64,000 bases of DNA from Acidobacteriota bacterium (GCA_963664705.1 OY761556.1:6368001-6432000); one strand, 5' to 3'; counted from the stretch's first letter, positions 28,106-64,000 are shown. Notes: generated from the sequence alone by a model not told the origin. Program-made: numbers and translations.

Positions 28106-28112
28106 TTGTTCC

Positions 28113-29330: not shown

Positions 29331-29343
29331 GTTGTTCCTTGAG

Positions 29344-29703
29344 CTAGGTTCCCGTTTTTTCAGGAGGCACTTGCGAGGACCTGTAATCTATCACCTTCGC
29401 TTGTTCCAAAGTAACAAGGCCTCCGTTCATCATCCCATCGATTGCAGAAAGGAACGCGTTGATCCTCTCTTCAGTATCGATAATTTCAACAACCAGTGGC
29501 AGGTCCGACGAGATGTGCAGGGGCTTGGCCGCATGCAACCTGCTGGACAAACCATACCCCAAAGGACCTCGCAGCACGGTGGCGCCGGCCATATGCATTT
29601 GGCGGGCCTTGAGAACCAGGGCTTCATAAAGAGGTTGGTGCTTCCATCGGTCGCTTTCGCCAAGGAAGATTCGCAACAGCATCGCATCGTGTGGGAGATG
29701 CAT
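29344..29703 (-). CDS. DUF190 (PII-like, COG1993) protein
   Basis: LLRIFLGESD...PLYEALV...AGATVLRG..GYG...DLPLVVEIID; start after AAGGAG. Confidence 0.92.
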   Translation of the reverse strand: MHLPHDAMLLRIFLGESDRWKHQPLYEALVLKARQMHMAGATVLRGPLGYGLSSRLHAAKPLHISSDLPLVVEIIDTEERINAFLSAIDGMMNGGLVTLEQAKVIDYRSSQVPPEKTGT

Positions 29704-29846
29704 ATCAGGCTCCTTCATAAGAACAGATTCCTGGAACGCTATTCCCAATCCAAGCCCCGTCTGATTCTTCAGGTGAAGTATGCCGAAATTCTAGAAGAAA
29801 AACTGGTGCTGCCACTCACTTCATGCCGTATACCGAATTCGGGCAT

Positions 29847-29886
29847 AAAAAAACTCCTACCGAATCACGTTGGTCCGGGTAGGAGT
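29847..29886 (-). terminator. Terminator overlapping the 3' end of fluoride riboswitch 2
   Basis: ACTCCTACC...GGTAGGAGT-TTTTTT. Confidence 0.85.
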
Positions 29887-29948
29887 CATCAGCTCTGATG
29901 ATTTCAGGCGGTTTCTCACCATCTGGCGAGCAGGCAAACTCCATTGCC
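29878..29948 (-). ncRNA. Fluoride (crcB) riboswitch 2
   Basis: GGCAATGGAGTTTGCC-(extra hairpin)-AAACCGC...GCTGATGACTCCTACC. Confidence 0.92.
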
Positions 29949-30097
29949 TATAAACATTACTTTATACGTGTGCGGTTACCTTGCGCAAGCATCTTCACAT
30001 AGCAACATAAGGAACGATTAGGCTGAAGATTTATAATCTGATGCGAATTCCTCGCGATTGACATGAACCCGTAGGCTTGGATAACCTAGTTCTCAGA

Positions 30098-30147
30098 GGC
30101 GATGGAGTTCGCCCTTAACCATCTCCATGAGATTGATGACTCCTACC
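30098..30147 (+). ncRNA. Fluoride (crcB) riboswitch 3
   Basis: GGCGATGGAGTTCGCC-cttAACC-atctc-cat-gagat-TGATGACTCCTACC; TTGACA at 30058. Confidence 0.93.
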
Positions 30148-30177
30148 TGGAAAACTGGCCGGTAGGAGTTTTTTTTT
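30139..30177 (+). terminator. Terminator overlapping the 3' end of fluoride riboswitch 3
   Basis: ACTCCTACC...GGTAGGAGT followed by a T run. Confidence 0.85.
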
Positions 30178-35774: not shown

Positions 35775-35966
35775 ATGCTAACGGGAATACGAATAATTGG
35801 TCTGGGAATATGGGTTGCGATTCTCAGTATGGCGATCTCAGCGTTGTTCTTCCGACATAGCACGGAGGAAAATGCCACGCTTATTTTCGTGGCTATCATG
35901 GACTTCATTGTGATTGCGCTCGCTGCGAAAGCCGTGCTGATAATGTGCCACAAAAAGCGAAGTTGA
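35775..35966 (+). CDS. Small hypothetical two-TM membrane protein
   Basis: 63 aa, two hydrophobic stretches, AAGGAGG upstream although distant from the ATG. Confidence 0.4.
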   Translation: MLTGIRIIGLGIWVAILSMAISALFFRHSTEENATLIFVAIMDFIVIALAAKAVLIMCHKKRS

Positions 35967-36025
35967 GAGTCCTTTTATCCATTTGGCTTCCCATGGCTCT
36001 GAAAGCAGAAAAAATCCGCTTGCTC

Positions 36026-36057
36026 TTGTCACGAAAAATACCTATTATTCGTGACAA
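36026..36057. promoter_or_regulatory. Inverted repeat, likely operator of the second AbiE operon
   Basis: TTGTCACGAA-a-AATA-cc-TATT-a-TTCGTGACAA just upstream of ATG 36074. Confidence 0.7.
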
Positions 36058-36073
36058 ATCACTCGGATCGCAT

Positions 36074-36697
36074 ATGGAACAAAACATTGCAAATAAGATA
36101 CTTTCACGGATATATGGTCTTGGTAGGGGTAAGGTGTTTACCCCAAAAGACTTCTTGGATCTGGGCAGCCACGAAATAGTGCGACAATCCTTGTCTCGAT
36201 TGGCCAAAGAAGGCAAAATCCGCCGCTTACTGAGAGGTGTTTATGAATATCCGGCATTTAGCAGGCTACTAAATGCACCGGCAAATCCGGATCCGGACAC
36301 AATCGCTCAGGCCATCGCGCGGGCACACGGGTGGACGCTCATTCCTTCTGGAGAAACGGCGCTGAATATTTTGGGTTTGTCGACGCAAGTGACAGCTCAA
36401 TGGCAGTACTACAGCGACGGACCATCCAAAAAGTTCAACTGGCAAGGCGGAACTCTGATTTTGAAGCATCGGACGAATAAGGAAACATCGAAGCTTTCTC
36501 CAATGACAGCTTTGGTGGTCCAGGCGCTCAAGGCATTGGGCGAAGATAATGTCGATAAATCTGTGCCGGCGACACTCCGGAAAAAACTAGATTCGGCCGA
36601 GCGCAATCGCGCTGTTCGAGAAGCCCGATACGTCACTTCCTGGATTTATGAAATCATCAAGAAATTAGCGGCGGAGGATAAATCACTCAATGCGTGA
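36074..36697 (+). CDS. DUF6088/AbiEi-type antitoxin
   Basis: VFTPKDFLDLGS...LSRL...IRRLLRGVY...PSGETALNILGLSTQV...SDGPS. Confidence 0.88.
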   Translation: MEQNIANKILSRIYGLGRGKVFTPKDFLDLGSHEIVRQSLSRLAKEGKIRRLLRGVYEYPAFSRLLNAPANPDPDTIAQAIARAHGWTLIPSGETALNILGLSTQVTAQWQYYSDGPSKKFNWQGGTLILKHRTNKETSKLSPMTALVVQALKALGEDNVDKSVPATLRKKLDSAERNRAVREARYVTSWIYEIIKKLAAEDKSLNA

Positions 36698-37676
36698 CGT
36701 TGCACGATTGCCGGAAAATGATCGGCGGGATCTGTTCAGGGCGGCAGCACAGAAAATGCGCATTCATGAAGCCATTGTCGAGAAAGATTTCTGGGTTTGC
36801 TGGATCTTGGATTACCTCTTTCACGACTACCCATCGAAAGATCATTTTGTTTTCAAAGGTGGAACCAGTCTTTCCAAAGCCTTTGGCGCAATCGAGAGAT
36901 TTTCAGAAGATATCGATCTTATCCTGGATTGGAAACTCCTTGGATATTCGCCGGAAGAACCGTGGCAGAAACGTAGTGCGACAAAGCAGGATGCCTTTGG
37001 CAAGGAATCCAACCGACGAACAGCCGATTTTCTCACACGAGAGTTTGTACCGGCAATTCATCAAGGTTTGTCCGAACTGATTGGACGCACCATAGGAGTA
37101 GAGGCGCGAGAACAGGATGTTCTCATAACATATCCCGCCGCATTTTCGCTTGCAGCTATTCAACCCCAGATCAGGCTTGAAATTGGTCCAATGGCGGCAT
37201 GGGTTCCCAATGAGCAGCGGGCAATTCATCCATATGCATCGGATCATTTTCCGCAATTATTCAAACAGGCTGAAACCTCGATTTGTACCATTGTGGCGGA
37301 ACGGACCTTCTGGGAAAAAGCGACAATCCTGCACCAGGAAGCACATCGCGGACCGGACAAGCCATTGCCTCGACACTATTCGCGTCACTACTACGATCTG
37401 TATAGGCTAAGCCTCCTTCCGATCCGTGATAATGCCTTCAAGAAGATCGATCTGCTGCAGGATGTGGTTCAATTCAAGATGCGGTTTTACCGTTGTCCAT
37501 GGGCTAGGTATGAAGATGCAAAGCCCGGAAGCTTGAAATTGCTGCCACCCGAGCATCACCTCGCGGAACTGAAGAGAGATTACCAGTCAATGCAGGACAT
37601 GCTTTTCGGAAAAATACCAGGTTTCGATGAAATCATGGCGCAGATTGAATCTTTGGAGAAGATGATTAACGCGTAG
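36690..37676 (+). CDS. AbiEii/AbiGii-family nucleotidyltransferase toxin
   Basis: VEKDFWV, FKGGTSLSK...IERFSEDID, ERTFWEKATILH and SRHYYD motifs. Confidence 0.93.
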   Translation: MRDVARLPENDRRDLFRAAAQKMRIHEAIVEKDFWVCWILDYLFHDYPSKDHFVFKGGTSLSKAFGAIERFSEDIDLILDWKLLGYSPEEPWQKRSATKQDAFGKESNRRTADFLTREFVPAIHQGLSELIGRTIGVEAREQDVLITYPAAFSLAAIQPQIRLEIGPMAAWVPNEQRAIHPYASDHFPQLFKQAETSICTIVAERTFWEKATILHQEAHRGPDKPLPRHYSRHYYDLYRLSLLPIRDNAFKKIDLLQDVVQFKMRFYRCPWARYEDAKPGSLKLLPPEHHLAELKRDYQSMQDMLFGKIPGFDEIMAQIESLEKMINA

Positions 37677-40372: not shown

Positions 40373-41317
40373 CTAGACGATTGCTGCGCGAACGCCGGCA
40401 AACAGCAGCAAGAACAGGATCGCGGTACCAAGCATTAATTGGTTGGCCGAGAGAATATCGCGTGTGTCGAGTGATCGCAGCGGATCGCCGAAATAATTTC
40501 CCTCATACCGCTCGCCGCCATAATAATTCACGCCTCCAAGTTGTACGCCCAATGCTCCGGCCACAGCTGCTTCCGATAATCCGGCATTGGGGCTGGCGTG
40601 CTTGCGCCCATCCCGCAAACAAATACGCAGACAATTCAGCGGCCGGAATCCCAGGATTGCGGCTGCTGCTGCAATCAAGGGAGCCGTTACCCTGGCCGGC
40701 AGATAATTCGCAACGTCATCCAATCTCGCGGAGGCCCATCCGAAATACAGGTATCGTTCGTCTTTGTAGCCGAATGTGGAGTCCAATGTGCTGACAGCCT
40801 TATACATCATTGCAGCAAGCGGGCCTCCCAGGATGGCAAAAAACAGCGGCGCAGTAATTCCATCCACAAGATTTTCCGCCACGCTCTCTACTGCGGCCCG
40901 TGAGACATCCCGCTCATTTAGTTGATCCGTGTCTCGTCCCACGAGCATGGAAACGCAGCGTCGCGCCTCCCCCAGATCTTTCTGCCTAAGAGCCCGATAG
41001 ACACGATAGCTGTGTTTCGCAAGATCCCTGGAAGCAAAGGTGGTATAAAGCAAAACGATGGACACGGCATTGCCGGCATAAGGATGCATCCGTGACGATC
41101 CCGAAATCAGGGCATATGTGATTAGGCCTGTAAGTCCGACAACCAGAGATGCCGCAGTAATTCCGGCTATACGCTCGTTTGGAATCATGCGTCGCAACGG
41201 CTTTTCCAATGTCACAGCGAACCTGCCGATCCATCTGACCGGATGAGGAAACCATCGCGGATCCCCGAGCAGAAGGTCTAATCCAAACGCCGCCAGTATC
41301 TGAATCTCGAGTCTCAT
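40373..41317 (-). CDS. cbiB: Adenosylcobinamide-phosphate synthase
   Basis: [31 protein letters not shown] and HASPNAG motifs. Confidence 0.96.
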
Positions 41318-43848
41318 CGCAATCCCATCAGCCGATAGATTTCATCTACGCGAATGCTTTTGCGCACCACTTCGGCCAATCGGTCAAGCGCCGGCTCCAG
41401 GTTATAGGGAGCGCATATTTTTCCCAAAGGCGCAAGTCGCCGGCGCTTTCGTAACCGATCGATGAACCAGCGGCGAAACCCATCTGCATCGAAGATGCCG
41501 TGGAGATACGTTCCCCAGATGAGATCTGTTCCGCTACCGATAATCGCGCCATCAGGACGGACTACAACAGACGGAAGACTGTCTCCATTACTTAGGCCGT
41601 GATGAATCTCATAGCCATGTACGCTGTGCCCAGAGCAGTGTGTGGCAGCAGAGCGCACCAGCGTTTTTTCTGCAGCCATGGTCGTCGTAAGTTCCAACAG
41701 TCTCAGTCCCTGAGTCTCTTTGCGAGTTGATTCAATGCCGGCAGGATCGCTAATTCTTGTCCCCATCATCTGATATCCGCCGCAAATTCCTACAATTTCC
41801 ACAGTCTGCGCCTGTCGCAGTATTGCCTTATCTATGCCGCTTTGCCGCAGGCACGCCAGATCTTCGAGAACATTCTTGCTTCCAGGCAGAATAATGGCAT
41901 CCGGAGATCCAAGATCGCACGGAGACCGCACTACTCGAACGGTTACGTCCGGTTCATTTCGCAGAGCATCAAAATCGGTAAAGTTTGAAATATGCGGAAG
42001 ATCAATTAGGGCGATGTCGACACCTTCCGTCAGATCTCGTTCCTGAGCTGTCGACGTGCCTTTGAATGTTACGGAGTCCTCCTCAGGCAAACCGAGCTGA
42101 GAAATAAAGGGAACAACTCCATACACCATCTTCCCGGTATGACGTTCGGTATATTCGTGAGCCTCCCGAAGCAGGGATTCTCTGCCTCGAAAGCGATTCA
42201 CGACAAATCCTGCAACCAGAGCTCGTTCCCATTCCTCCAGCACTTCCATCGTACCTACAAATGATGCATATACGCCGCCGCGATCGATGTCGCCGACCAG
42301 GAGCACCGGTGCTTGGGCATAGCGCGCCATGCTCATGTTCACAATATCGTGGCTCTTGAGATTGACTTCCGCCGGGCTGCCCGCACCTTCCAGAACTATT
42401 GCATCATATTCTTCCGACAGACTGTCGTAGGCCTCCTGGGCGGCACGGAATGCCTCCGGTTTGAAACGGATATATTCTTCCACACTCATATGGTCCACAG
42501 GCTTGCCGCAGACAATCACCTGGCATCCAACATCGGAACTGGGCTTCAATAGAACCGGATTCATTTGGGCTTCAGGCTCGATATGGCAGGCCTGAGCCTG
42601 AACAACCTGCGCACGGCCCATTTCTCCTCCATCCTGCGTTACATAGGAGTTGAGCGACATGTTCTGCGATTTGAATGGAGCCACGCGGTATCCATCCTGC
42701 AGCAAAATCCGGCATAGGGCGGTGGTCAGGATGCTCTTACCGGCATTCGAACTTGTTCCTTGAAACATGACCGCCGGCCTTTTCGCCATTTTCCGTCTGG
42801 TCTTGCGACTTCCCAGGCACTCACACAGCCGCACATTTTCCGACTCGGTCCGGACCGCAATTCTGAAAAAGCGGTCATCCAGCCCCTTGAAATCACTGCA
42901 GGTCCGGATTGCAATGCCTTGATCCAATAGTTGCTGAGCAAGCGTGGAGGCATCCAGCCCCGGACGGTCAATGCGTATCAGCAGGAAATTTGCATGTCCC
43001 GGAAAGACTGTGAAGCCTCCCAAGGTTTTTATTCCCCGCATAAGGAGATCCCGCTGCCGGGTCACATACTCTCGCGTCCTGCGCAAATACTCGGAATCGT
43101 TTAGCGCGGCCACTCCTACTGCTTGCGCCAGGGAGTTCACCGACCATGGAGCCTGGACTTCACGAAGTCGGCCAATAACGGAGGCATCAGCGATCGCGCA
43201 TCCCAATCGAAGACCGGGAATGGCGAAGATTTTGGTCAGTGAAAGAAGAACAATAATATTGTTAGGACGATTCCGGGTTAGCCGGTCCATACCATCAACA
43301 AAATCAGCAAAAGCCTCATCGACAACAAAGATCGTGGAGGGATTGCGCTCAGCCAATCGCCGAATTGTTTCGGCATCACAGATCGTGCCTGTCGGATTGT
43401 TCGGTTGCCCTAAAAAAACAAGATCCTCGCCTTGCAGCACGGAACCAAGCTCTTCCACATCGAGTGCAAAATCATTGACCTCCGCGAGCGGAAAATGATC
43501 CACCTGCTTGCCCGATATCGTGCAGGCACGTACGTAATCGGTGTAGGAAGGGACAGGCACGACGCACCGCCTGCCGTACAAACGGGGAATCAAATAAAGA
43601 ATTTCGCTCGAACCATTCCCAATGATAATTTCATTCAATCCGGCGCCATAGCGCTTTGCCACAGCATCAAGAAGAATCAGGCACTCAGGATCAGGATAAT
43701 GCACCAGTGTGCTGATCTTGGAACTGATTAGAGGCCGCAACCATTCCGGTGGTCCCAAAGGATTCAAGTTAGCGGAAAAATCGAGTATTTCTTTTTCCGA
43801 CTTTCCTGTAGATTGAGCCAACAAGCGCAGATTCCCGCCGTGCATCAT
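41314..43848 (-). CDS. cbiP: Fusion of threonine-phosphate decarboxylase (CobD) and cobyric acid synthase (CbiP/CobQ)
   Basis: N-terminal HGGN...[12 protein letters not shown]...PNNPTG...[14 protein letters not shown]; C-terminal [39 protein letters not shown] and GTYLHG. Start overlaps the cobS stop (ATGA). Confidence 0.93.
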
Positions 43849-44588
43849 GCTCTCCACCCCCAGGATGCACAAATCAACGCTGGCAGGATTTCGGTTATCT
43901 CGCAGACAGCTCCGAGCGTGTCTCCTGTAAATCCGCCTATTTTTTTGCGGCACCAAAGTGAAAAAACAATTGTCATCAGGAAAACTATTCCAGCAATCAC
44001 TAGTCCAGGAATATTCATTACAAACCATGCAGCGACTGACAGAATCGATAATGCAGCAATCAGAGCCGGCCAACCCGGCCGCCCAAACACTGTGACTAAT
44101 CCTCCTTGAGTGCGGGCATAGGGAACGGCCTTCATGCCAAGCACCAAGGCGCATCGTCCGGCCAAAGGCATCAACAGAACCGCGCGCCAATGCAATAGTC
44201 CGGGCACTGAGGCCAAAGCGGAAATTTTCAGCGCCAGTACGCAGACGATGGCAATAACACCCATCGGCCCCACATGGCTGTCTCTCATAATCTCCAGAAT
44301 TCGTTCTCTGGGTCTGGAACTTAAAAAACCGTCTGCGGTATCCGCCAGCCCATCCATGTGAAAACAACCCGACACAGCCAGCATCAGGATAACCATGACG
44401 ACGTTTGCCGGAAGCGGCGGGAATAATCGGCAAACTCCGCAATCCAGGACAGCCAGCACTCCCCCGAGAATCAAGCCTACGACAGGAAAGAAAAGAACGC
44501 TCTGCCGCAGTTCTTTCTCACCGACTTGAAAACGAGAAGAGACGGGGAAAATGGTCAAAAATTGAATGGCGGCAAGCAGAGGTTTCAT
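43845..44588 (-). CDS. cobS: Cobalamin synthase
   Basis: [25 protein letters not shown] and [10 protein letters not shown] motifs. Confidence 0.96.
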
Positions 44589-48470: not shown

Positions 48471-49781
48471 TCATGTCCAGAGAACCCATCGGACTTCCCG
48501 AAGTATGGACTCAACAAGCCATGCGCCGCCCAGAGTCCCCAGCATTGATTTCGGCACAATATCGATTACTCGTCCTGAGGGGAACGCGACCTCGATCCCT
48601 CCGCATTTGTTACCGAATCGGGCTTGGAGTACTTCCTGACCGTCTGCAAACAGAATCTCCGGATCCGCCATGCGCCAGGGCTTTTGCCAGACATCCCCAC
48701 ATCCTATGCCTTCGAGCCACGTTTTGAGTTTTGCTGCCGCATCCGTAGAATAGAAATCAGGCGTTTCCACAGAAACAGGCAGCATTCCAAGATATTGGAA
48801 TAACCATTGAGCAAGAGGCAGCGCGAATGAAGGATCCGACTGTACCGCAAACGTTGTTCCTTTGAGAGCCTCCGTGTAACTCGAAGCTCGATCGATCATT
48901 CTCGAAACCTGACGCCTGCGATCCTGAATGTCGCTAATTGCAGGTGTTGGATCTGAGTGTACTGCATGAGCAACAGCGGTGATCCATTCCATCGTTGCGG
49001 AAAAGCCGACAGGAGCTCCTGAATTGCTTGCTGCTATCATGCCGCCATATTGGCGCTCCAGCCATGGCACCACACAATCGGCATATTCATCGTGTATGAC
49101 TGCATAGCAGGAGGCTTGCGGGATCCGCTGATATTCATCTGTGGCGCTTCCCGCTCCAATGGCACAGAGGACTTCAATCCCGCATAATTCAAGAAGACGC
49201 CGCAATTCTTCAATGCTTCCAGACCAGTATTGGTGGGCAATCGATAAGCCGACCAGCACGACAGTTTTAGGAATGTGCGGTTGAGGTTTCGGGGACAGGG
49301 CCTCAAGAATTGAAATCACCCCCTGCTGATAACCTGCGGCAAAAGGATGGGAGAGCATCGGCATCTCGATTGTCGCGCAGGGGGTGAAAGGCGCTGCTTC
49401 AGTGGCACATCTTTTGAGATCATCTCCTATGAGGGCAGCTCCTGGAGAGTTTATTACTGTAACCAAAGCGGCATTATGTTTCGCAACCAATGCAATTGCC
49501 TGGGTCAGTTTTTCTCTTCCTCCAAAAACATAGTCGTCTCCATCCAGATATGTTGTGGGGATACGCGATTGACTGAAGTAGAAACGTTCTGCGTAATTCA
49601 GTTGTTTGCCGGCATCAAGCCGGGGAAAAAAACGATCAGACATCGCACCGTGGAGCCCCCGGCATCCTGTGGGGCCATGGAGAATCACAGCGCCGTCCCG
49701 CACGCTCTCGCAGGCTAGCAGTGCGCCGCTGAATCCGTCAGGTATGCGTGAATTCCCGCCATGTTTAGGACAAATCATCAC
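48471..49781 (-). CDS. Nitrogenase component-1-like subunit (NifK/BchZ-like)
   Basis: ILHGPTGC, PTTYLD..DYVFGG..KL, ALIGDDL and PVGF..T..W motifs; only one of the three canonical cluster Cys is retained. Confidence 0.85.
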   Translation of the reverse strand: MMICPKHGGNSRIPDGFSGALLACESVRDGAVILHGPTGCRGLHGAMSDRFFPRLDAGKQLNYAERFYFSQSRIPTTYLDGDDYVFGGREKLTQAIALVAKHNAALVTVINSPGAALIGDDLKRCATEAAPFTPCATIEMPMLSHPFAAGYQQGVISILEALSPKPQPHIPKTVVLVGLSIAHQYWSGSIEELRRLLELCGIEVLCAIGAGSATDEYQRIPQASCYAVIHDEYADCVVPWLERQYGGMIAASNSGAPVGFSATMEWITAVAHAVHSDPTPAISDIQDRRRQVSRMIDRASSYTEALKGTTFAVQSDPSFALPLAQWLFQYLGMLPVSVETPDFYSTDAAAKLKTWLEGIGCGDVWQKPWRMADPEILFADGQEVLQARFGNKCGGIEVAFPSGRVIDIVPKSMLGTLGGAWLVESILREVRWVLWT

Positions 49782-51972
49782 GCCACCCTTCCTTCTCCGG
49801 CAGTTGCATCAGTCGCCCCCAGCGTTCCGCCCTGGTCAGACCACTGAAAAAACCCACATCCGGCACCAGCGGAATTGCATCGATCCGCACGCTCGCCGGA
49901 CGGTCCTCCCAGAATCCATTTGTCAACATCAGGTCCGGTGCAAGGGTGTGAACCTCTTCATCCCGTTTTTGTTGTGTATAGGAAAGCTCTATCGGGAAGT
50001 GCCCTTCGTAGCGGGTGGCGAACGCATCGTCCCATACGGAATTGAGCACGCCTAACTTGACGATTTCCATATCGAGATCGGCAATCAGGCTGAGAAGCCA
50101 ATCGATTTGGTAATTAGGCGTGACCACAAACACTCGCTTTCCTGCAAGGGAAGGTCGAAGAGCTGAGAGTGCAGTCTCATACAGCTTTCGATTATGCTCG
50201 ATGATAGCGTCGGCATCGTTTTGTTTTTCAAAAACATCGGCAATGCGCTTTAGCCAATCTGCTGTGGCCTCAAACCCAACGGGGAACGGATCATCGAGGA
50301 AGCTCGCCTGATAACGGTCAATTAGAAAATCCCGGATGGATCTGCCGCATCGGTCCGCGGAGGCAAGCAAATTCAAGCGGCCGCGCTTAAATTGTTTTAG
50401 TTGAATACCGGTGCAATTACGCAGGAAACGGCAGTTGATGCCGAGCCCAAGTTCATGAAGCAGGTCTCTCACAGTATTAAAATTTGCATCAGTATTGCCG
50501 GCGAGGTTTTTTTCTCCGACGATGTTTACAGCATCCGGATCGAAAGGCATTTCGGGATCGATAAAATGGTCTGCGACAGCCATCATGGCATTGATAATGC
50601 CCTGCATATAATCACCGGCGATGTCCCCGTCTGTTTGAATCGGAATAACCGGAATCTCTGTCCGCATGCGCGCGCGTGCAGCTTCTACGGATTTTGTGAT
50701 GTCATCGCCGATTATTCCGGATGCGCAAGTAGTAACAACAAAGAGCGCCTCGGGATTTGATCCCAGGGAATTCAAAATCCCCTTCTCCAGGCTCTCACCG
50801 CCTCCGAAGATAGAGATGGTTTCATCCATCTCAGAGCTTTGGATGGACGCCAGGCTCGAAACCTCAAAAGAATTTCCATTTCGGCGTTCGACGCGAAGGG
50901 CAGATGATGCCATCCCAATGTACGAAATATGGGCACAGCTGCGCGGTCCATGCGCGAGAATTGCAGTGTTTCCAATTTGCATTAATGTGTGGATAGCGCC
51001 ATTGAAGGCGCATCCGTGCAAAGCTTCATGGGCACGAACACTTTTTGAGTGATATTGCTTTGGCGGCAACGGTGCAGGAATCGGAAGGGCCGCTTCATGC
51101 CTGGCGGATGCGGGAATCCGGCTCTCGTGCAGAGCTGATTCGGAGATCGTCCCTGCTGTTACCATTTCATTCCCCAGGATTATCGCTTCCAGGTTATCAG
51201 GCGAAAGGGGCTGCGCAGCGTAGGGCGGGGGGAACTGCAGAATCTCCTTGGCAAGATCACGGAAGCAAACAGCCAAAAAGCTGTCAGGAAAAGCCTCCGT
51301 GAGGGATTGTCCCAGGCGTTCGGCTTCAGTGATTTCCGGACTTCTGGGAAAGGAGGCAATGACGGGCAGTCGAACGGCATCGGCAAAGCGTTGAATACGA
51401 TCCTTTTCGTGTGGCAGACCGCGTTCATTGAAAATCAGTCCTGCCATTCGAGCGCCATTCTTCTCATAATTCCGGACGCCGCGGAGAATGTTGTTGGCGG
51501 CATACAAAGACATGAACTCGCCCGAAGTCACAACGTAGACAATGTCGGCGTACTTGTCCCGCAGCGGCATCGCAAAACCGCCACAAACCACATCGCCCAG
51601 AATGTCGTAGATTGCGACATCAAAATCGCACCCGGCAATATTGAGAGACTGCATCAACTCGAACGCAGTGAGGATGCCACGGCCGGCACAACCAACTCCC
51701 GGCTCAGGGCCGCCGGCTTCCACGCAAGCCACACCCGCAAATCCCGAGTGCAGAATGGCGTTCAACCCTCTTTCCTCCGGTTTTGTTTTTCTGATGTACT
51801 CAAGAACCGGAAGCGCTTTCCGTCCCTGCAAAAGAAGTCGGGTTGAATCCTGCTTCGGGTCACAGCCTACTTGTAGAATTCGCATTCCCGACATAGCCAT
51901 TGCCGCCGAGAGATTCGCCGCAATGGTTGATTTGCCTATGCCGCCTTTTCCATAAATAGCAATCTGTTTCAC
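49765..51972 (-). CDS. Nitrogenase-like fusion: NifH/CfbC-type Fe protein + NifD/CfbD-type component-1 domain
   Basis: YGKGGIGKST, GCDPKQDST, GGPEPGVGCAGRG and GDVVCGGFAMP; then a Pro-rich linker; then HGCAFNGA, HGPRSC and TTCASGIIGDDI. Confidence 0.92.
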   Translation of the reverse strand: MKQIAIYGKGGIGKSTIAANLSAAMAMSGMRILQVGCDPKQDSTRLLLQGRKALPVLEYIRKTKPEERGLNAILHSGFAGVACVEAGGPEPGVGCAGRGILTAFELMQSLNIAGCDFDVAIYDILGDVVCGGFAMPLRDKYADIVYVVTSGEFMSLYAANNILRGVRNYEKNGARMAGLIFNERGLPHEKDRIQRFADAVRLPVIASFPRSPEITEAERLGQSLTEAFPDSFLAVCFRDLAKEILQFPPPYAAQPLSPDNLEAIILGNEMVTAGTISESALHESRIPASARHEAALPIPAPLPPKQYHSKSVRAHEALHGCAFNGAIHTLMQIGNTAILAHGPRSCAHISYIGMASSALRVERRNGNSFEVSSLASIQSSEMDETISIFGGGESLEKGILNSLGSNPEALFVVTTCASGIIGDDITKSVEAARARMRTEIPVIPIQTDGDIAGDYMQGIINAMMAVADHFIDPEMPFDPDAVNIVGEKNLAGNTDANFNTVRDLLHELGLGINCRFLRNCTGIQLKQFKRGRLNLLASADRCGRSIRDFLIDRYQASFLDDPFPVGFEATADWLKRIADVFEKQNDADAIIEHNRKLYETALSALRPSLAGKRVFVVTPNYQIDWLLSLIADLDMEIVKLGVLNSVWDDAFATRYEGHFPIELSYTQQKRDEEVHTLAPDLMLTNGFWEDRPASVRIDAIPLVPDVGFFSGLTRAERWGRLMQLPEKEGWRDDLS

Positions 51973-52925: not shown

Positions 52926-52989
52926 CCGTTTTTCATCCTCGATGTTTTGCCAGAGCACCCAATCCACGAGGTGCAGCGCAAATTTTTCT

Positions 52990-53145
52990 GTTCAGGTCTT
53001 CCGGCTTCCGGATCGTTCTACTTGCCGCGCCTTCCCATCCCATCGGACAGTGGCAATCTGCGGTTTTCGTCCCCGGTTACGGCGGCGGGTCCGCGACGGA
53101 TTTCAACCGTCTTCCCTATCGAATTTTCAAAATAGAACTTTTACA
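52990..53145 (-). ncRNA. Cobalamin riboswitch 1 (controls the tonB-nfl-cob operon)
   Basis: AGGGAAgacGGTtgAAATCCgtcGCGGaCCCgCCGCCGTAA...GCCACTG...GGGAAGG...AGCCGGAAGACCTG (B12 box). Confidence 0.95.
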
Positions 53146-53207
53146 GACAATGCGTGATGCAAGTCAAGCTAATTTCAATGTTGTTGACCCGCACCGTTGA
53201 TCGCTAT

Positions 53208-53396
53208 ATATTGGCGCCGCTTTTCGGTTCTTCGCGAATACGAAGAAAAAAGGGAACCTGGTGCGAATCCAGGACTGCCCCGCAGCGGTAAGCAGGAACG
53301 AAAGCCATCACCAAGCACTGATCCTCTCCGGGATTGGGAAGCGATGGCCAGTAGAGATTAAGTTTTATTGCCTGCAAGTCCGAAAACCTGCCGATA
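53208..53396 (+). ncRNA. Cobalamin riboswitch 2 (controls cbiZ)
   Basis: AAAAGGGAAcctGGTGcgAATCCaggACTGcCCCGCAGCGGTAA...GCACTG...GGGAAG...AAGTCCGAAAACCTGCC. Confidence 0.93.
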
Positions 53397-53529
53397 GCTG
53401 ACGCGATCCTCGCGTTGAAATTCACGAGTCGCCGAGGGGCGGGCTGGTACCTCCCATTATTGATATATGGGCATATGTTTTTCCCCTTTTGGCTAAAACC
53501 TTGAGCGATAGCAGAAAGGGTGATCAAGC

Positions 53530-54267
53530 GTGATGGAAATTGTCGAAGAAGTGATTCCGCTACCGCGAGATAAATCTTTTGTTTGCCGGAAGTGTGATAA
53601 GACGCTCGTAGTTTCATTCGCGTTGCCGCGTCCCGTTCTCAGTTGGGCCGCCTATAACGGCGGATTTCGCACGAATGTCTCCCACGTCATCATTCATGCC
53701 GTGGACTCAATTCCGGTACAAAGCGCGCGCCAAGCGGCAAGTAGACTGGACCTGCGCGGTACCGTCGTCGGCATGATGACGCGACACGAGTTGGATTTCC
53801 AGACAGTTACGGTGGCCGAGGGAGATCTGCAGGTTTCCGCCATAGCGGTTGCAGATTGTTCAATGATGGCAACAGTCGGAGAACATCCGGTGCATCCAAT
53901 CGAAAGACCAGGACCGAATATTCACCTTACTTTATTCAATCTCATTCTGGTTACAAATTACCGCTTCACGCAAGAAGCTATGCTGGAAGCCATTTCCATA
54001 GCAACTGAAGCAAAATCCCGCGCAATCTGCGAACTGGGTCTCCATACGCGAAGCGGAGAGCTCGCCACTGGCGGCACCGCCGATTGTGTGGCTATGGTTT
54101 CGGGTCTTGATCGGCGCTATGAATGCTGCTCCAAAGAGGAGGCGTGGGGAATGCTGATTGGACGGGCCTCGCTCGAATGCATGCGAAGGGCGCTGGCCGG
54201 CAGTGCTGCTGTTTCACATTCGATCCAGCGAGCCCAATTTTGTCATCGAACCACAAAAGCCCTCTAA
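53530..54267 (+). CDS. cbiZ: Adenosylcobinamide amidohydrolase CbiZ-like
   Basis: VLSWA.YNGG, VGMMT, NLIL...EAI.IATEAK and ATGGTADC motifs (canonical ATGTxTD); B12 riboswitch upstream. Confidence 0.75.
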   Translation: MMEIVEEVIPLPRDKSFVCRKCDKTLVVSFALPRPVLSWAAYNGGFRTNVSHVIIHAVDSIPVQSARQAASRLDLRGTVVGMMTRHELDFQTVTVAEGDLQVSAIAVADCSMMATVGEHPVHPIERPGPNIHLTLFNLILVTNYRFTQEAMLEAISIATEAKSRAICELGLHTRSGELATGGTADCVAMVSGLDRRYECCSKEEAWGMLIGRASLECMRRALAGSAAVSHSIQRAQFCHRTTKAL

Positions 54268-54945
54268 CGCTATGCTTGATGTGACAATGGCACAAGTTGC
54301 CGGACCGGCGCTTTCCCACAGGACAGAAATATCAAACCCAGATATCAGTCTGGTGTGTAATCCGGTTTCTTCCTCCAATACGTGCAACTCCCAGCCAATC
54401 CCCCGCGAGCCGCAAGGGATCACATCTCCTATACCTGTATTCTCGCGCAATTGACGAATCTGCCTGGGAGTCGGCAATACAGCCAGGTTCACAAGCACTT
54501 CTTCTCCAACATAAGGTTTCCCGAGCAAATACACATCGTCTCCCGCTTGAGCAAGCCGCCACGAAAGCTGCTTGCATTCGCCGAGAAGCGTGATTCCTAT
54601 CGCTGTAATATTGGTTGGTACATTATCTTCAGTGCTTCCTCCCCATGAAAGGTCCGGATATCCGGAATCGGCAAGCTCAGCTTGTATTCCGGATAATAAT
54701 CGGGTGCCTGTCGGTTCACGCTCATTGCATGTCAATGCCATCAGTGAGAAAGGAACAGCACCTACCGACAGTGTCTCCATCAGACAGACGCGCGCTGTCA
54801 TACGACCGCATAATTCGGGCGCTACTTGGATTGCATCGCCCGGTTTCATCCCGAGGCCACCCAAGCTATCGGCGGCAATGGTGAGGAAGCCCTCCTTTTG
54901 CTGGTATACCAGAATATCGCGCGATGTCTGCACCAATGGGATCAT
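54214..54945 (-). CDS. cblS: Alpha-ribazole kinase CblS-like (AIR synthase-related)
   Basis: RD...AADSLGGLG.K..D...GRMTARVCLME...EREPTG, GSTEDN, G.PYVGEEV, IPCGSRGI..E and SAGPATC motifs. Confidence 0.72.
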   Translation of the reverse strand: MIPLVQTSRDILVYQQKEGFLTIAADSLGGLGMKPGDAIQVAPELCGRMTARVCLMETLSVGAVPFSLMALTCNEREPTGTRLLSGIQAELADSGYPDLSWGGSTEDNVPTNITAIGITLLGECKQLSWRLAQAGDDVYLLGKPYVGEEVLVNLAVLPTPRQIRQLRENTGIGDVIPCGSRGIGWELHVLEEETGLHTRLISGFDISVLWESAGPATCAIVTSSIALEGFCGSMTKLGSLDRM

Positions 54946-55946
54946 TATTCGTCCTTCACATTGGGATGAACTCCGGCCATGGCATTTCGCTGGAGGCAGA
55001 TTTTGCCCAACCATTCTTCGCGCGACCTGTACGAAAATTCGTAGGTCACATAGGCGGGATCAATTACGTCAAAAAGGCCAGCAATGGCCGGATCCTCAAA
55101 AGGATCATGATGATCAATCCGGTTTACGTGATCGATTGCCTGATGGTATCGATCCCAGAAAGTCCCGGTTGCTACTGGAGGTGACGGTAGCACGAGGGTT
55201 TTCGCCACATATTCCGCCGAAAGACTTCGCGTCAGATGAACTCCGCGGATAGTTCGGCGAGCCTCTCCCAAGGAACGCACAGACCGAATAAGGAATTCGA
55301 TACCCGCTGCTTCCGTAAAAATGCTCTGGTTGGTATTCAGCATATGCCCTGTGTCAAAAACAACTCCGGTATGTGGGTAAGTGATGCGTTCCATCGCATA
55401 CTCGATTTCTTCCGGGTGTAGCGCTCGGAAACTTCCCGGCCACCATAAATTTTCAAGGAGCAAGTCGCCGCGAAACGGAGAATCGGCAAGGACTGCATTC
55501 AGCAGTTCCGCACACATATCTACCGTATCGCGCCAATCCCAGGGAAACTGCCAGTTGTATATGTAATCGAATTCGCTTTGTGCCAGATGAAAAACGGCAT
55601 ACGCACATCCAAGCTGATGTGCAAGTGTCAATTGGCGCCGGTAGTTCGCTATCAGCGACTCGCGCGTTGGTCCTCCATAAAATGTTGAAACCGTCTCCGA
55701 GTCACCGAATATTTCCAGCAGGCGCCGGTTGTCCTCAGTCCAGAATGGCCTGAGAATCGGGTAGAAGCGCAGATGCATCCCGATGATCAATCCTTTGGGA
55801 ATAGTCTCCCATGCATGTTCACCTACTGGATATAATTCAAATCCGTCAAACCCTTCGGCTTCCAGAATTCCTCGAGCATTGTTCCAGTCGTGGCCAATAA
55901 TCGCCTGGTCACCGGGATGAGTGCTGATATTCAACGCGAACTTCAT
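54945..55946 (-). CDS. AP-endonuclease-2/xylose-isomerase-like TIM barrel; candidate CbiR cobamide phosphodiesterase
   Basis: DGFE, GMHLRFYP, YAVFH, LLENLWWPG, FDTGH, GVHL and IDHHDPF motifs. The fold call is firm; the CbiR call rests on family and context. Confidence 0.62.
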   Translation of the reverse strand: MKFALNISTHPGDQAIIGHDWNNARGILEAEGFDGFELYPVGEHAWETIPKGLIIGMHLRFYPILRPFWTEDNRRLLEIFGDSETVSTFYGGPTRESLIANYRRQLTLAHQLGCAYAVFHLAQSEFDYIYNWQFPWDWRDTVDMCAELLNAVLADSPFRGDLLLENLWWPGSFRALHPEEIEYAMERITYPHTGVVFDTGHMLNTNQSIFTEAAGIEFLIRSVRSLGEARRTIRGVHLTRSLSAEYVAKTLVLPSPPVATGTFWDRYHQAIDHVNRIDHHDPFEDPAIAGLFDVIDPAYVTYEFSYRSREEWLGKICLQRNAMAGVHPNVKDE

Positions 55947-55982
55947 TCAGGAGAGTTCCTTTCTCTTAAGGCGGCACTTGTT

Positions 55983-57581
55983 TTATTTCGTCGGTTTTAA
56001 ATCCAAGGTGTCTCGGCGGAGAAGAAGATTGTAGTCAAAGCGATCGTAAAACCGTTTATTCCTGCTCTTCGAAGCATCCAGCCTCATTGAACACGCGCCC
56101 TTGCCGTAAGCAGCGGCCTCATCCCATCGATGGTGGCTGTCCGTGGGAGCACAGACTATGGCTTTGTTGCTGCTGGCCGCTGCGATATAGAGTTGTTCGA
56201 TGCTCCTGGTTGCCAGAGCTCGGCTCATCTGCTCGCTAAGCTCTTTCCCAGTTGATGCCACTGCTATATCACAGCCAAGCTTTGCTCCCGCCAAAGCAAG
56301 TTCGGGATGCATCAGCTCTTCAGCACAGGCAAGCAGAACTCTCGCCCCGGCGATATCCGCAATGCAGAGCTTGTCTGTGGCGTTCTTTCCCATTGGCTGA
56401 TGGTGTCGGATGATGCGGCCTGAGGCTTCGGCGAGAATCATGGTACAGTTGTCCGGATTTGAATTGTCCAGAAATCCAGCGCACACATCTACGCCACGGC
56501 GTGTTGCAACCGCGGCGAGAATATTCTCCGCTTCAGCGATCGAAGAAGCTTTGCCGGCGGGCAATACCAGAAGGCGCGCATCCGGTCCTGAAGTTGCGCT
56601 GTTAAGAATGTTCTCAATCGCCAAAGAAGAAAAAACCTGCTCGGGAGGCAGCACTGCAGAAATCAGGATGCGTTCTACGGGTTTTGGAAGCTCATAATAT
56701 GATGTTAGATCGGCAGCGTAGCGCATATCCAGGTACATCGGCGTATAGAGATGCGGAGTTCTTGATTGGAGTCGCTCCAAGGAAAGGCTCGCGAGTCTTC
56801 CGTTGTACAACGGCAGGCATGCATAAAATATTTTAGAGTCCGTACTGCTCTCCTGCACAAGAGTCTCTCCATACGGTGTGTAGCAGCATGATTTTGCATT
56901 AAGAAATTCCATAGTGCGGTCGGTCCCGCACCGATTGCAGGCGGCGATATAAACCCCATTTTCAAAGGCCCTGGATTGCCAGAGTTCTGCCGGGTCGAGA
57001 GGATCCGACGGCCAATTGGCTGGAACCAAAATGATGTCCGCTCCTCTCAGAGCCGTGGTACGCGGGATGGCCCCGAAATAGGTGTCGGAACAAATAAGGA
57101 TTCCCGCCCGTCCCCATGGAGTCTCAAATGTATTCTGCTGTTGAGGATCTCCCGGGCAAGCCCACCGCACCTCCGCTGATGTTTTCCGATAATGGCAAAC
57201 AATATTGCCTCCGGGCGAAAGAGCCGATGCTGCATTATAAAAAATGCCGGTTGCATCATCGCGTTCCGCATAACCCACAACGATATAGGCTCCATGCTCG
57301 GACGCAATGCCTGCGAGCGCATGGATTAGTGGCCCGTCCATTGTTTGAGCCGCGCCCGCGATATCGTCACATGATCGAAAACTGTAGCCGGAAATGCAAA
57401 GTTCGGTATTAACAATGATCTTTGCACCAGCCTCCGCAGCCTTGCGATTGAGCGATATCAGTTCTCTTAGGTTATGCTCCGGCTGATTGTAGCGAACGTT
57501 TAGATGAACCAGCCCGATCTTCAGTAGTTCCATACATGACTCCAAGGGATGCTGAACAGGAGATGCACGCATCTCTGACAA
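55983..57581 (-). CDS. Two-domain carbon-nitrogen hydrolase (nitrilase superfamily)
   Basis: The N-domain has the catalytic E (NTELCISGY), K (HYRK) and C (LICSD), plus PANW. The C-domain is a degenerate repeat (LLACAEELMHPE...AKLGCD). Start uncertain (57581, 57572 or 57533). Confidence 0.85.
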   Translation of the reverse strand: MSEMRASPVQHPLESCMELLKIGLVHLNVRYNQPEHNLRELISLNRKAAEAGAKIIVNTELCISGYSFRSCDDIAGAAQTMDGPLIHALAGIASEHGAYIVVGYAERDDATGIFYNAASALSPGGNIVCHYRKTSAEVRWACPGDPQQQNTFETPWGRAGILICSDTYFGAIPRTTALRGADIILVPANWPSDPLDPAELWQSRAFENGVYIAACNRCGTDRTMEFLNAKSCCYTPYGETLVQESSTDSKIFYACLPLYNGRLASLSLERLQSRTPHLYTPMYLDMRYAADLTSYYELPKPVERILISAVLPPEQVFSSLAIENILNSATSGPDARLLVLPAGKASSIAEAENILAAVATRRGVDVCAGFLDNSNPDNCTMILAEASGRIIRHHQPMGKNATDKLCIADIAGARVLLACAEELMHPELALAGAKLGCDIAVASTGKELSEQMSRALATRSIEQLYIAAASSNKAIVCAPTDSHHRWDEAAAYGKGACSMRLDASKSRNKRFYDRFDYNLLLRRDTLDLKPTK

Positions 57582-57654
57582 AATATCATCGCGGGTTTAA
57601 GGTTGAGCCTTGTGCGGACTTAAGAAGACCGTCTGGCACCCCTGATCCCGGAGG

Positions 57655-57755
57655 CATTCGTCCTCTGACTGATAGATCGTCCGATAGGGCGTCTAAACAC
57701 AGTTACGGGTATAGTCTCGGATTCTCACCGAATTCCCTGCCAAAAATCCGTAATC
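57655..57755 (-). ncRNA. Cobalamin riboswitch 5, short form lacking the P8-P12 extension (class II-like)
   Basis: Minus strand AGGGAAttcGGTGagAATCCgagACTATACCCGTAACTGTG-short hairpin-cAGTCAGAggAC; no GCCACTG/GGGAAG extension. Confidence 0.72.
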
Positions 57756-57861
57756 AAATATCATTGCCGTTTCAGAAATGTCAACGAATTTGATTTTTGT
57801 GAAAACCCGAACGTGGATTCAAAAAGCGCTTGACTTCAAAGCGACTTGTTTGTAATTTCGC

Positions 57862-58015
57862 ATTTCGATCGCTCTTTTAAATATGATCAGGGAAGACGGT
57901 AGAAGCCGTCGCGGACCCGCCGCCGTAACCGGGGACGAAAGCTGCAGAATGCCACTGTCTGATTGGATGGGAAGGCGCAGCAAGTAGAACGATCCGGGAG
58001 CCGGAAGACCTGAAT
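57862..58015 (+). ncRNA. Cobalamin riboswitch 3 (first of a tandem pair before btuB)
   Basis: AGGGAAgacGGTagAAGCCgtcGCGGaCCCgCCGCCGTAA...GCCACTG...GGGAAGG...AGCCGGAAGACCTG; near-copy of riboswitch 1. Confidence 0.95.
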
Positions 58016-58073
58016 GCTTTGCGCCTCGCGGAATGGGCGTTGCACCTGATGTATAACGAGGATGAAAAACGGC

Positions 58074-58118
58074 ATCCCCGGATTTGGCCGAACTGGCCGG
58101 ATTCGGGGATTTTTTTTG
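58074..58118 (+). terminator. Terminator of cobalamin riboswitch 3
   Basis: ATCCCCGGAT-ttggcc-gaact-ggccgg-ATTCGGGGAT-TTTTTTT. Confidence 0.85.
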
Positions 58119-58154
58119 GCTTGTCAATATTCTTAATGAGGTGATGCACAAAAA

Positions 58155-58305
58155 TTGACCATGTAGCTCCGGATCCAGGGAAGGGAGTGAAACGCTCCCA
58201 CCGCCCCGCGACTGTAATCGGGACGAAAGCCGCAGGATGCCACTGTCCTAAGGGATGGGAAGGCGCGGCAAGTAGGCAGAACGAAAGTCAGGAAACCTGT
58301 TCCGG
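58155..58305 (+). ncRNA. Cobalamin riboswitch 4 (second of the tandem pair before btuB)
   Basis: AGGGAAgggAGTGAAAcgCTcccACCGcCCCGCGACTGTAA...GCCACTG...GGGAAGG...AAGTCAGGAAACCTG. Confidence 0.92.
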
Positions 58306-58355
58306 CGGCATTTAAAAACTCTATTTCCTTCGCGGGAAGTTAAGGAGATTATCCA

Positions 58356-62738: not shown

Positions 62739-63787
62739 TGACGGAATCCGCAGTTATTCATCTTGAAAATGTGACAATCGGATATCGGCAGCATAGGCAT
62801 CCGCAACGGATAGTGGCGAAGAATATTTCGGTCGCCTTAAACGCAGGAGAATTTGTTTGCCTTCTTGGGCCCAACGGTGCAGGAAAATCCACGCTGATTC
62901 GAACGATCTCAGGTATGCAACCGCCCCTGACTGGAGTGGTTAGACTCGATGGGAAACATCTATCATCCTATTCATCCCGAGAACTAGCTCAGCGCATGAG
63001 CCTTGTCCTGACTCAGCGCGCCGCTGTGGGAATGATGTCCGCGTCCACATTGGTATCTCTCGGTCGGCATCCCTATACCAGTTGGACTGGGAAACTCGGT
63101 GCCCATGATGTGGAAGCCGTTCAAGCAGCAATGGCTGCAGTTGGAATCGAAACACTGGCGCACCGTCCTGTTTGTGAACTGAGCGATGGAGAGCGACAAA
63201 AAGTGATGATCGCCCGCGCTCGGGCTCAGGATCCTCAGGTGATGATTCTAGATGAAGCAACAGCATTTCTTGATTTGCCGCGCCGCGTCGAATTCATGCA
63301 TTTGCTTCGTCGTCTTGCTCCTGCCGGTAAGCGGGCAATTCTTCTTTCGACGCATGATCTCGATCTGGCATTACGATGCGCAGATCGACTCTGGCTGCTT
63401 CCACCTGGCGGTCCCCTGCAACAAGGTGCGCCGGAAGATCTGGTGCTGACCGATGCTCTTGCATCTGCTTTCCGGGACGCTGAGGTGAAGTTTAATAAAG
63501 AGTCCGGTGCATTCCAGCATCGGCGCGGCGATCGGGGAAGTATTGCCCTGCATGGCGAAGATGTTCCGGCGATGTGGACCTATCGAGCACTGGAAAGAGC
63601 AGGCTATAGGGTTGTTGCTCCCGGTGAAGCACAAACCTGTGTTGAGGTCCGGCACGAAGGCGATTCGATTGTCTGGAATATCCGGGAGATAGACAGGTCC
63701 CGCTGCAATTCAGTTGAGGCATTGCTGGCGCAGCTGCGACTGATCGAGGTGAAAGGAACGGCGAATGCGTCTGGGCACCTACTATGA
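62738..63787 (+). CDS. btuD: Cobalamin ABC ATPase (BtuD/FepC)
   Basis: GPNGAGKST, LGRHPY, LSDGERQ, LDE and STHDL motifs; start at ATG 62738 after GGAGG. Confidence 0.9.
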   Translation: MTESAVIHLENVTIGYRQHRHPQRIVAKNISVALNAGEFVCLLGPNGAGKSTLIRTISGMQPPLTGVVRLDGKHLSSYSSRELAQRMSLVLTQRAAVGMMSASTLVSLGRHPYTSWTGKLGAHDVEAVQAAMAAVGIETLAHRPVCELSDGERQKVMIARARAQDPQVMILDEATAFLDLPRRVEFMHLLRRLAPAGKRAILLSTHDLDLALRCADRLWLLPPGGPLQQGAPEDLVLTDALASAFRDAEVKFNKESGAFQHRRGDRGSIALHGEDVPAMWTYRALERAGYRVVAPGEAQTCVEVRHEGDSIVWNIREIDRSRCNSVEALLAQLRLIEVKGTANASGHLL

Positions 63788-64000
63788 CGGTGTGGAATTA
63801 CATCGCGAAGATAAGATAGTTTATGCGCGGTTTTTGCTTCCGCACCGGGTGATATCTACTTGCCCGGCTGCAGGCGGACTGAGGGACAATCTCGTATACC
63901 TATACAATCATCAATCTTGCGAGCCGGCAGGACACAATCCGTCCATCCATCGCCTTGTTTCCCACGATCCTCAAACCTATCGGCGCCTGATTTGTCGTCA
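63765..64000 (+). CDS. 5' part of a second CbiZ-like amidohydrolase, truncated by the window edge
   Basis: MRLGTYYDGVELHREDKIVYARFLLPHRVISTCPAAGGLRDNLVYLYNHQSCEP; HRVIST...GG...NHQ is a CbiZ N-terminal pattern. Confidence 0.62.
   Translation, partial: MRLGTYYDGVELHREDKIVYARFLLPHRVISTCPAAGGLRDNLVYLYNHQSCEPAGHNPSIHRLVSHDPQTYRRLICR

Follow-up and report, generated by a model that had tools for sequence, protein, structure and literature searches.

Cobamide remodelling determines which forms of B12 each microbe can use. Few enzymes of this process are known, namely CbiZ, CbiR and some CobS (PMC7733943; this and the further papers below are cited for the part of their text that was available). 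CbiZ is a cobinamide amidohydrolase, CbiR of Akkermansia muciniphila is the precedent for cobamide phosphodiester cleavage among AP endonuclease 2 superfamily members (both PMC7733943), and in CblT-CblS salvage, CblT is the transporter and CblS the kinase (PMC8123684). The locus described here lies in a 64,000-nucleotide stretch of an Acidobacteriota genome (GCA_963664705.1 OY761556.1:6368001-6432000), hereafter referred to as the window. It consists of three co-oriented genes on the minus strand behind a compact cobalamin-type aptamer, encoding a hydrolase, a TIM barrel and a CblS-family protein of 516, 333 and 243 amino acids, respectively. This operon probably serves corrinoid salvage.

The families of the hydrolase and the TIM barrel are uncharacterised, retain intact catalytic residues and are tightly linked to B12 loci. 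The conserved unit is the hydrolase together with a long CbiZ, not the three-gene operon. Relatives of the hydrolase neighbour B12-salvage genes in many anaerobes. The features of the operon are as follows, with positions counted from the first nucleotide of the window:

55983..57533, minus strand: hydrolase, 516 amino acids, tandem nitrilase fold with a degenerate C-domain
54945..55946, minus strand: TIM barrel, 333 amino acids, AP-endonuclease-2 protein (ENLWWP family), predicted metal-dependent phosphodiesterase, not CbiR
54214..54945, minus strand: CblS-family protein, 243 amino acids, likely alpha-ribazole kinase, PurM/ThiL fold
57639..57755, minus strand: compact cobalamin-type riboswitch (likely), sub-threshold Rfam matches, three copies
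57757..57784, minus strand: sigma70-like promoter TTGACA-16-GATATT, directly upstream of the aptamer

The ATG of the third gene overlaps the stop codon of the TIM barrel gene by one base. A preliminary description of this DNA, made from the sequence alone, had placed three co-oriented genes behind a compact aptamer unlike the four long ones; gene calls and Rfam agree with it, and the four long aptamers in the window score above the gathering score of RF00174. Contigs from one DNA run, which may be the source sample, span 54000-57935 with zero differences. ESM Atlas returned clusters with generic names only.

The tandem hydrolase and its corrinoid neighbourhoods

The hydrolase has the alpha-beta-beta-alpha fold and the Glu-Lys-Cys triad of the nitrilase superfamily. 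Pfam CN_hydrolase covers the N-terminal half of the protein (E 5.5e-37), where the triad is formed by E44, K117 and C148 (codons at 57404, 57185 and 57092). Among the best 120 of 124 homologous matches, which are mostly full-length and 29-74% identical, E44 is kept in 117, K117 in 119 and C148 in 117; the named homologues among the matches listed come from Chlorobi, Desulfobacterota/Deltaproteobacteria, Accumulibacter and Methanothrix. A second nitrilase domain, devoid of the triad, makes up the C-terminal half (hhalign 98.9%), and the two halves of a Methanothrix member are 31% identical to each other. The alignment of the 120 homologues and this half-to-half comparison thus bear out the preliminary reading of an E-K-C hydrolase with a degenerate second domain. 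The residues conserved in the C-domain (HPE and RxxE) occupy what we take to be positions equivalent to the dimer-interface motifs of nitrilases. Because of this presumed correspondence, a structural pseudo-dimer is a simpler explanation than a corrinoid-binding C-domain, and we infer that the single chain folds as a pseudo-dimer with only one Cys active site.

The predicted model of the hydrolase is of high confidence (predicted local distance difference test score of 94), and its closest folds are amidases: PH0642 (TM ~0.8), Nit2, carbamoylases and a glutaramide-bound amidase. The two-domain build presumably resembles the nitrilase_1_R1/R2 subgroup of CDD, and the distant matches P0118-P0120 show the same duplication. 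Common to the hydrolase, this tandem subgroup and the PH0642/Nit2 amidases is a duplicated nitrilase fold whose second copy is without the Cys, whereas the hydrolase family differs from these by a more eroded C-domain, the nucleophile motif C-S/A-D (in the 120-homologue alignment) and a corrinoid neighbourhood. For each of the 11 matching NCBIfam models (AguB, Nit1, AmiE/F, NadE, Lnt, archaeal nitrilase), the score lies far under the cut-off. True nitrilases carry a C-W-E motif. The C-S/A-D motif and a score of 22.7 bits against the 502.6-bit cut-off of TIGR04048 exclude the protein from true nitrilases, cyanide hydratases and Nit1C.

The neighbourhood set comprised the best 80 of at least 414 confirmed metagenome loci together with L001, L002 and L004 (L001 and L004 encode identical proteins), which formed 57 groups at 90% identity. 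Riboswitches were called with an nhmmer profile and marker genes were recounted by tblastn. A strictly defined marker, either a corrinoid gene or a cobalamin riboswitch, was found in 40 of the 57 groups and in 30 of the 34 groups of at least 8 kb; calls of open reading frames (ORFs) gave 38/57 and 28/34, before cobO was found in L046 and L056. The background was 93 of 6878 equal-sized windows of the host genome (1.4%), and the B12 linkage of the hydrolase homologues, on which the preliminary description had depended, is therefore well above it. The linkage spans the whole hydrolase tree, from which three short fragments were omitted, archaeal-type members included. It holds at 30-50% identity in Chlorobi, deltaproteobacterial-type, acidobacterial and Methanothrix-type members, and gains wider support because gene orders differ across the tree.

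The most frequent neighbour is cbiZ, present in 30 groups and adjoining the hydrolase in 22. It is followed by radical SAM (19 of 57), cobN (15), riboswitch (13), cbiK (9), the TIM barrel (7), cobO (7), the glycerophosphodiester phosphodiesterase GDPD (4) and cblS (1). The conserved partner is a long CbiZ of 380-400 amino acids, which was absent from the preliminary description and here ends the divergent btu operon. In 121 genomes of Chlorobiaceae, the family of a Prosthecochloris genome, the hydrolase and cbiZ occur in the same 20, adjacent in 18 and on separate contigs in 2; all 17 carriers of the TIM barrel fall within this set. The predicted complex of the hydrolase and the long CbiZ scored 0.00 in two runs, with no controls folded, and counts neither for nor against the pairing.

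Two further features of these loci are worth recording. At L032 and L133 and in 19 of the 57 groups, a SPASM-type radical SAM family of about 340 amino acids, far below the cut-offs of all NCBIfam models, accompanies the hydrolase, cbiZ and cobN. GDPD stands beside the hydrolase at L026, L034, L059 and L064, all without the TIM barrel, for which it may be a functional substitute.

Two adjacent genes of matching lengths have been reported, one as a "predicted amidohydrolase" and the other as a "sugar phosphate isomerase/epimerase", both classed as general-function (PMC8620254). That pair sits in variable regions with cbiZ and B12 transport genes, and no B12 role is proposed for it in the available part of the paper (PMC8620254). 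A literature search, with most subscription journals outside its reach, found no link between a nitrilase-fold enzyme and B12, in line with the preliminary statement that no nitrilase-family enzyme has a known B12 role.

The TIM barrel and the CblS-family protein

The second gene product carries Pfam AP_endonuc_2 (E 5.5e-12). Nine His/Asp/Glu residues (H58, H120, E165, D198, H201, H237, D278, H280 and E303), kept in 117-120 of 120 homologues, are by their numbering presumably the three-metal set of endonuclease IV. Endonuclease IV also ranks first in Foldseek; a search of the sequence against PDB gave 0 hits. From its sequence, the TIM barrel is likely to be a metal-dependent phosphodiesterase, and since its conserved residues match the metal set of endonuclease IV, it likely works like CbiR. 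With CbiR of Akkermansia muciniphila (NF041277; PMC7733943) it has in common the superfamily, the His/Asp/Glu metal set and the B12-locus context, and by analogy the two likely cut the same type of bond. The TIM barrel is longer, with 333 amino acids against the 249 positions of the CbiR model, and unlike CbiR its neighbours are the hydrolase, cbiZ, radical SAM, cobN or CblS. The family was found in 1 of 401 genomes of the phylum and has cobamide-gene neighbours both in the hydrolase loci and in Chlorobiaceae.

The TIM barrel is, however, not CbiR. It reaches 17.6 bits on the CbiR model NF041277 against a cut-off of 105, and two other host proteins outscore it (37.9 and 27 bits). BLASTP against Chlorobiaceae CbiR gave at best 20.8 bits over 20 amino acids, hhalign gave 0.6%, and the best score of a profile of 24 Chlorobiaceae CbiR against 120 TIM barrel homologues was 2.4 bits. 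The CbiR clade is defined by BLAST E<1e-3 (PMC7733943), a similarity that the TIM barrel does not show, as judged on Chlorobiaceae CbiR and not on the Akkermansia protein. Of the 121 Chlorobiaceae genomes, 105 have a true CbiR, among them 16 of the 17 TIM barrel carriers, so that the two proteins coexist. Of the earlier label "CbiR-like", the assignment to the AP endonuclease 2 superfamily stands, while the comparisons above place the protein in a separate family.

The third protein is 31% identical (E 4e-36) to the product of the Listeria gene preceding cobU-cobS-cobC, which by its position we take to be cblS. A 60% identical match is annotated as alpha-ribazole kinase, and the Lactobacillus plantarum gene between cblT and cobS on pMF1298-5, with 39% identity (E 7e-44), has been named CblS (PMC6722938). 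Support for the AIRS fold is weak but consistent (Pfam AIRS E 0.027; matches to thiL for 13 of 26 relatives; ThiL structure E 0.14), and the family amounts to 342 clusters at E<1e-30. The protein is thus likely an alpha-ribazole kinase of the CblS family, as had been proposed at the outset, and in this respect a further CblS, an already known kind of protein. It shares with CblS of Listeria and lactobacilli 31-39% identity over ~210 amino acids, the PurM/ThiL fold, a length of ~245 amino acids and the B12 context. It differs from known CblT-CblS salvage in its acidobacterial host and in the lack of CblT, noted before and agreeing with the absence of any tblastn match in the host genome to one CblT query, a search that a divergent transporter could escape. 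Known CblS is linked to the transporter and to cobS/cobC, whereas the protein described here is linked to an intracellular predicted phosphodiesterase.

For eight of 44 relatives of CblS, the longest contig is exactly as long as that of a TIM barrel relative, which suggests a shared contig, and none of these lengths is found among the hydrolase matches. This is indirect evidence that the TIM-CblS pair recurs, and the recycling pair of phosphodiesterase and kinase put forward in the preliminary description is plausible. The three-gene operon thus brings two modules together locally, namely hydrolase-CbiZ(-TIM) and TIM-CblS.

Proposed pathway and alternative explanations

The host genome (98% complete) contains cobB, cobO, cbiB, cobD-cobQ, cobS, cobT, cobU, cobC, btuBFCD, two cbiZ and a bza-like operon. 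CbiD, CbiK, CbiL, CbiHC, CbiET, CbiJ and CobN were not found in it; with these corrin-ring synthesis genes not found, the host is a corrinoid salvager. ChlI/D and a close radical SAM orthologue were not found in the genome either. CobB is retained, though needless for a pure cobinamide salvager, which is compatible with the handling of de-amidated corrins.

A scheme in which the TIM barrel cuts the nucleotide loop, CblS recycles the ribazole and the hydrolase cleaves a corrin carboxamide with the long CbiZ has, in our estimation, an even chance of being right. Foreign or incomplete corrinoids would be imported by BtuB/F/C/D. The TIM barrel would cut the phosphodiester of the loop, freeing an alpha-riboside either from the cobamide or from the linker-nucleotide fragment released by CbiZ; the CblS-family protein would convert the freed alpha-ribazole to alpha-ribazole-5'-phosphate, which would return to CobS. 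The hydrolase and the long CbiZ may trim the corrin part to a cobyric- or cobyrinic-type core, a side-chain amide, a lactam or the linker amide being the candidate target of the hydrolase. CobB, CobQ, CobO, CbiB/CobD, CobU, CobS and CobC would then rebuild the cofactor with a lower base supplied by the bza-like operon, and with plentiful cofactor the riboswitch would turn the operon off. With the remodelling enzyme CbiZ (PMC7733943) the hydrolase would have in common amide hydrolysis on imported corrinoids, predicted in its own case, and shares the btu linkage. Its fold (nitrilase, with a Cys nucleophile) is unrelated, and it accompanies the long CbiZ rather than replacing it.

A broader proposal, for which we put the chances slightly below even, is that of a widespread corrinoid-dismantling module combining the first B12 enzyme of the nitrilase superfamily with a second family of cobamide phosphodiesterases, independent of CbiR. 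Its users would include green sulfur bacteria, sulfate reducers, acidobacteria and Methanothrix-type methanogens, and the hydrolase would be a pseudo-dimeric cysteine amidase stripping or repairing corrin amides together with the long-type CbiZ.

Several observations weigh against these proposals. The predicted substrate of the hydrolase, a corrinoid carboxamide, is deduced from neighbourhood alone, and a second amidase step is not obviously needed, because CbiZ already cleaves the linker amide. Seventeen of the 57 groups have no strict corrinoid marker; 13 of them are shorter than 8 kb, while L028, L036, L047 and L067 are at least 8 kb long. The co-occurrence in Chlorobiaceae indicates linkage and not independent recurrence, since it concerns one linked island among kin. 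The three-gene order was found in only 1 of the 57 groups besides the window; as this order is rare, CblS occurs in 0 of the 121 Chlorobiaceae genomes and the TIM barrel occurs in 7 of the 57 groups, the three genes need not share one path. In a wider fold search, sugar isomerases (Z 18.8) match the TIM barrel as well as endonuclease IV does (Z 17-18). For two distant relatives of the TIM barrel (26-31%; Fusobacterium and Acetoanaerobium), no cobalamin riboswitch lies within 7 kb, and ORF starts at these loci gave no B12 gene that was recognised. Finally, the aptamer of the operon scores under both Rfam cut-offs (RF00174 and RF01689).

Among the alternatives, action of the hydrolase not on the corrin but on a small molecule, either a co-product or co-imported, such as a linker or lower-base fragment or a cobalt-carrying metallophore, survives best, though we consider it unlikely. 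The neighbouring SPASM-type radical SAM (19/57), CobN (15/57) and CbiK (9/57) point to cobalt handling, structurally solved nitrilase-fold amidases act on small amides, and the four loci with GDPD nearby are all without the TIM barrel. Against this, CobN, CbiK, ChlI/D and a close orthologue of the radical SAM were not found in the host, which retains the hydrolase, the TIM barrel and CbiZ; this excludes cobalt supply for de novo synthesis as the use here. Moreover, the most constant partner of the hydrolase is CbiZ.

It is considerably less probable that the hydrolase, as a glutaminase or omega-amidase, serves the amidating enzymes CobB and CobQ by providing ammonia or by cleaning up after them, like the nitrilase-fold domain of NAD synthetase. 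The top folds include Nit2 and the glutaramide-bound amidase. In 2 locus groups cobQ is the next gene downstream, and ORF calls put cobB at most two genes away in 4 (tblastn: 3). However, the CobB and CobQ proteins examined have GATase_3 domains of their own, most loci have neither cobB nor cobQ, and the hydrolase scores 48 bits on NAD-synthetase models against a cut-off of 479.

Similarly improbable is a hydrolase unrelated to corrinoids that is a mere passenger in a mobile B12 island. The patchy distribution of the families (hydrolase in 2 of 61 relatives, TIM barrel in 1 of the 401 genomes) and the hydrolase loci without a B12 marker are compatible with a passenger. The persistence of the linkage at 30-50% identity across distant groups with differing gene orders argues for a corrinoid role instead, as do the position of the hydrolase gene, which comes first after a riboswitch of its own, and the location of the host's distant paralogue, 245 kb from any cobalamin riboswitch.

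Detoxification or assimilation of cyanide or nitriles, either as in the Nit1C cluster (a nitrilase, a radical SAM and an AIRS-like protein) or for cyanide from cyano-corrinoids, is highly improbable: the gene sets are superficially alike, with a nitrilase fold and an AIRS-fold protein here and radical SAM in many related loci, but the hydrolase scores 22.7 bits on the Nit6803 model against 502.6 and has C-S/A-D in place of C-W-E, the AIRS-fold protein has its matches in CblS, only 3 of 26 relatives give a hit, a weak one, with the Nit1C AIRS model and the window protein gives none, and cyano-corrinoids are mostly a product of extraction, so that the earlier suggestion of cyanide detoxification finds no support.

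The corrinoid-salvage reading offers a lead on the role of the long CbiZ subfamily and on the occurrence of CblS without CblT, where ribazole would be made inside the cell. If it is true, genome-based predictions of remodelling will change for digesters, sediments and stratified lakes.

The probable compact riboswitch and the surrounding region

Class II cobalamin riboswitches are defined by the lack of P2 and of the large P6 domain, and Cbl-IIb, with a short-hairpin P6 extension, binds adenosylcobalamin (PMC7367189). All 38 of the 38 cobalamin riboswitches tested in another study respond to more than one corrinoid (PMC9600662). The compact element scores 29.4 bits on RF00174 (57736-57660; genome-wide E 3.4e-5) against a cut-off of 31.5, the only one of 10 genome-wide matches to fall below it, and 25.3 bits on RF01689 (57755-57644; E 0.004) against a cut-off of 36.5. 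RF01689 also scores two long aptamers (27.5 and 22.5 bits), and its score therefore assigns no class. In G020, a genome of the same genus, the element precedes the orthologous operon (85% identical; 25.0 bits on RF00174), and a second copy precedes a TonB receptor gene (74% identical). This recurrence places the compact element beyond chance.

The RNA model of 23 pairs comprises a P3-P6 core, a hairpin P6 extension and a predicted kissing loop between L5 (CCCG) and L13 (CGGG), without P2 and without the large P6 domain. All 69 of 69 cells are paired, with one compensatory change, in the same three sequences from which the model was drawn. Covariation is not significant with these sequences (178/500 shuffles) and is underpowered, because a pattern derived from the aptamer retrieved no further copies from 400 other genomes of the phylum or from viral contigs. 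The folding energy of the element alone is unremarkable (z +0.9). The promoter has 10 of 12 matches to the consensus, with 4 such sites in the region against 3.9 expected by chance; the TTGACA hexamer stands ahead of the element in 3/3 copies.

Judged by its sequence, the leader is likely a cobalamin-sensing riboswitch: both Rfam scores are below the gathering score, while the P3-P6 core and the kissing loop are conserved in the three copies. With class II riboswitches (RF01689; Cbl-IIa env8 and Cbl-IIb) it shares the lack of P2, the small P6 extension, the predicted L5-L13 kissing loop and a length of ~110 nucleotides. It differs from them in its scores, in keeping a class-I-like AGUCAGA segment and in a P1 that is not conserved in the third copy. 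Since the hairpin P6 extension matches the description of Cbl-IIb (PMC7367189), the preference for methyl- or hydroxocobalamin suggested earlier is unsupported. The riboswitch is a further case of an already known RNA type.

The operon is flanked by the following features:

53208-53409, plus strand: long riboswitch of the short cbiZ (Rfam)
53530..54267, plus strand: short cbiZ (CbiZ E 8e-25), convergent with the operon
57845..58319, plus strand: pair of long cobalamin riboswitches in tandem, at the head of the divergent btuB-F-C-D operon
63765..64000, plus strand: start of the long cbiZ (392 amino acids), last in the btu operon and extending beyond the window

The long CbiZ of the host (63765 onward) has GTETD and GNH in place of the GTGTD and GKH of the other 22 aligned members and may be altered or impaired. 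Just past the window (contig positions 6433061-6439100), a riboswitch-led operon encodes a ThiC-like protein, a methyltransferase with DUF2284, a BzaD-like protein and a further radical SAM. It resembles anaerobic benzimidazole synthesis (bza); its first gene passes the cut-offs of ThiC and not that of BzaB. At 41314-44570 (minus strand), a long ORF, whose start is overlapped by cobS, encodes a CobD-type aminotransferase fused to CobQ. A NifH-NifD-like fusion of 735 amino acids (best model CfbC, 311 against a cut-off of 402) and a second component-1-like gene occupy 48471-51972 (minus strand), behind a cobalamin riboswitch (52974-53150, minus strand) and tonB and upstream of ABC-2 and cob genes; genes of this nitrogenase-like kind also occur near the hydrolase in L074 and L081. 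The locus may thus encode a B12-regulated nitrogenase-like reductase in a salvager. The first of the tandem aptamers before btuB is nearly identical to the 52974-53150 aptamer and has a similar downstream hairpin.

Two AbiEii-type toxin-antitoxin loci (5769-6617 and 35945-37676) and a ParA gene flank the region, which suggests that it is an acquired island. Three fluoride riboswitches are located at 27575-30152 around genes for a dynamin-like GTPase, a Na+/H+ exchanger and an enolase, and an M-box riboswitch at 5353-5528 (minus strand) precedes an Nramp transporter gene.

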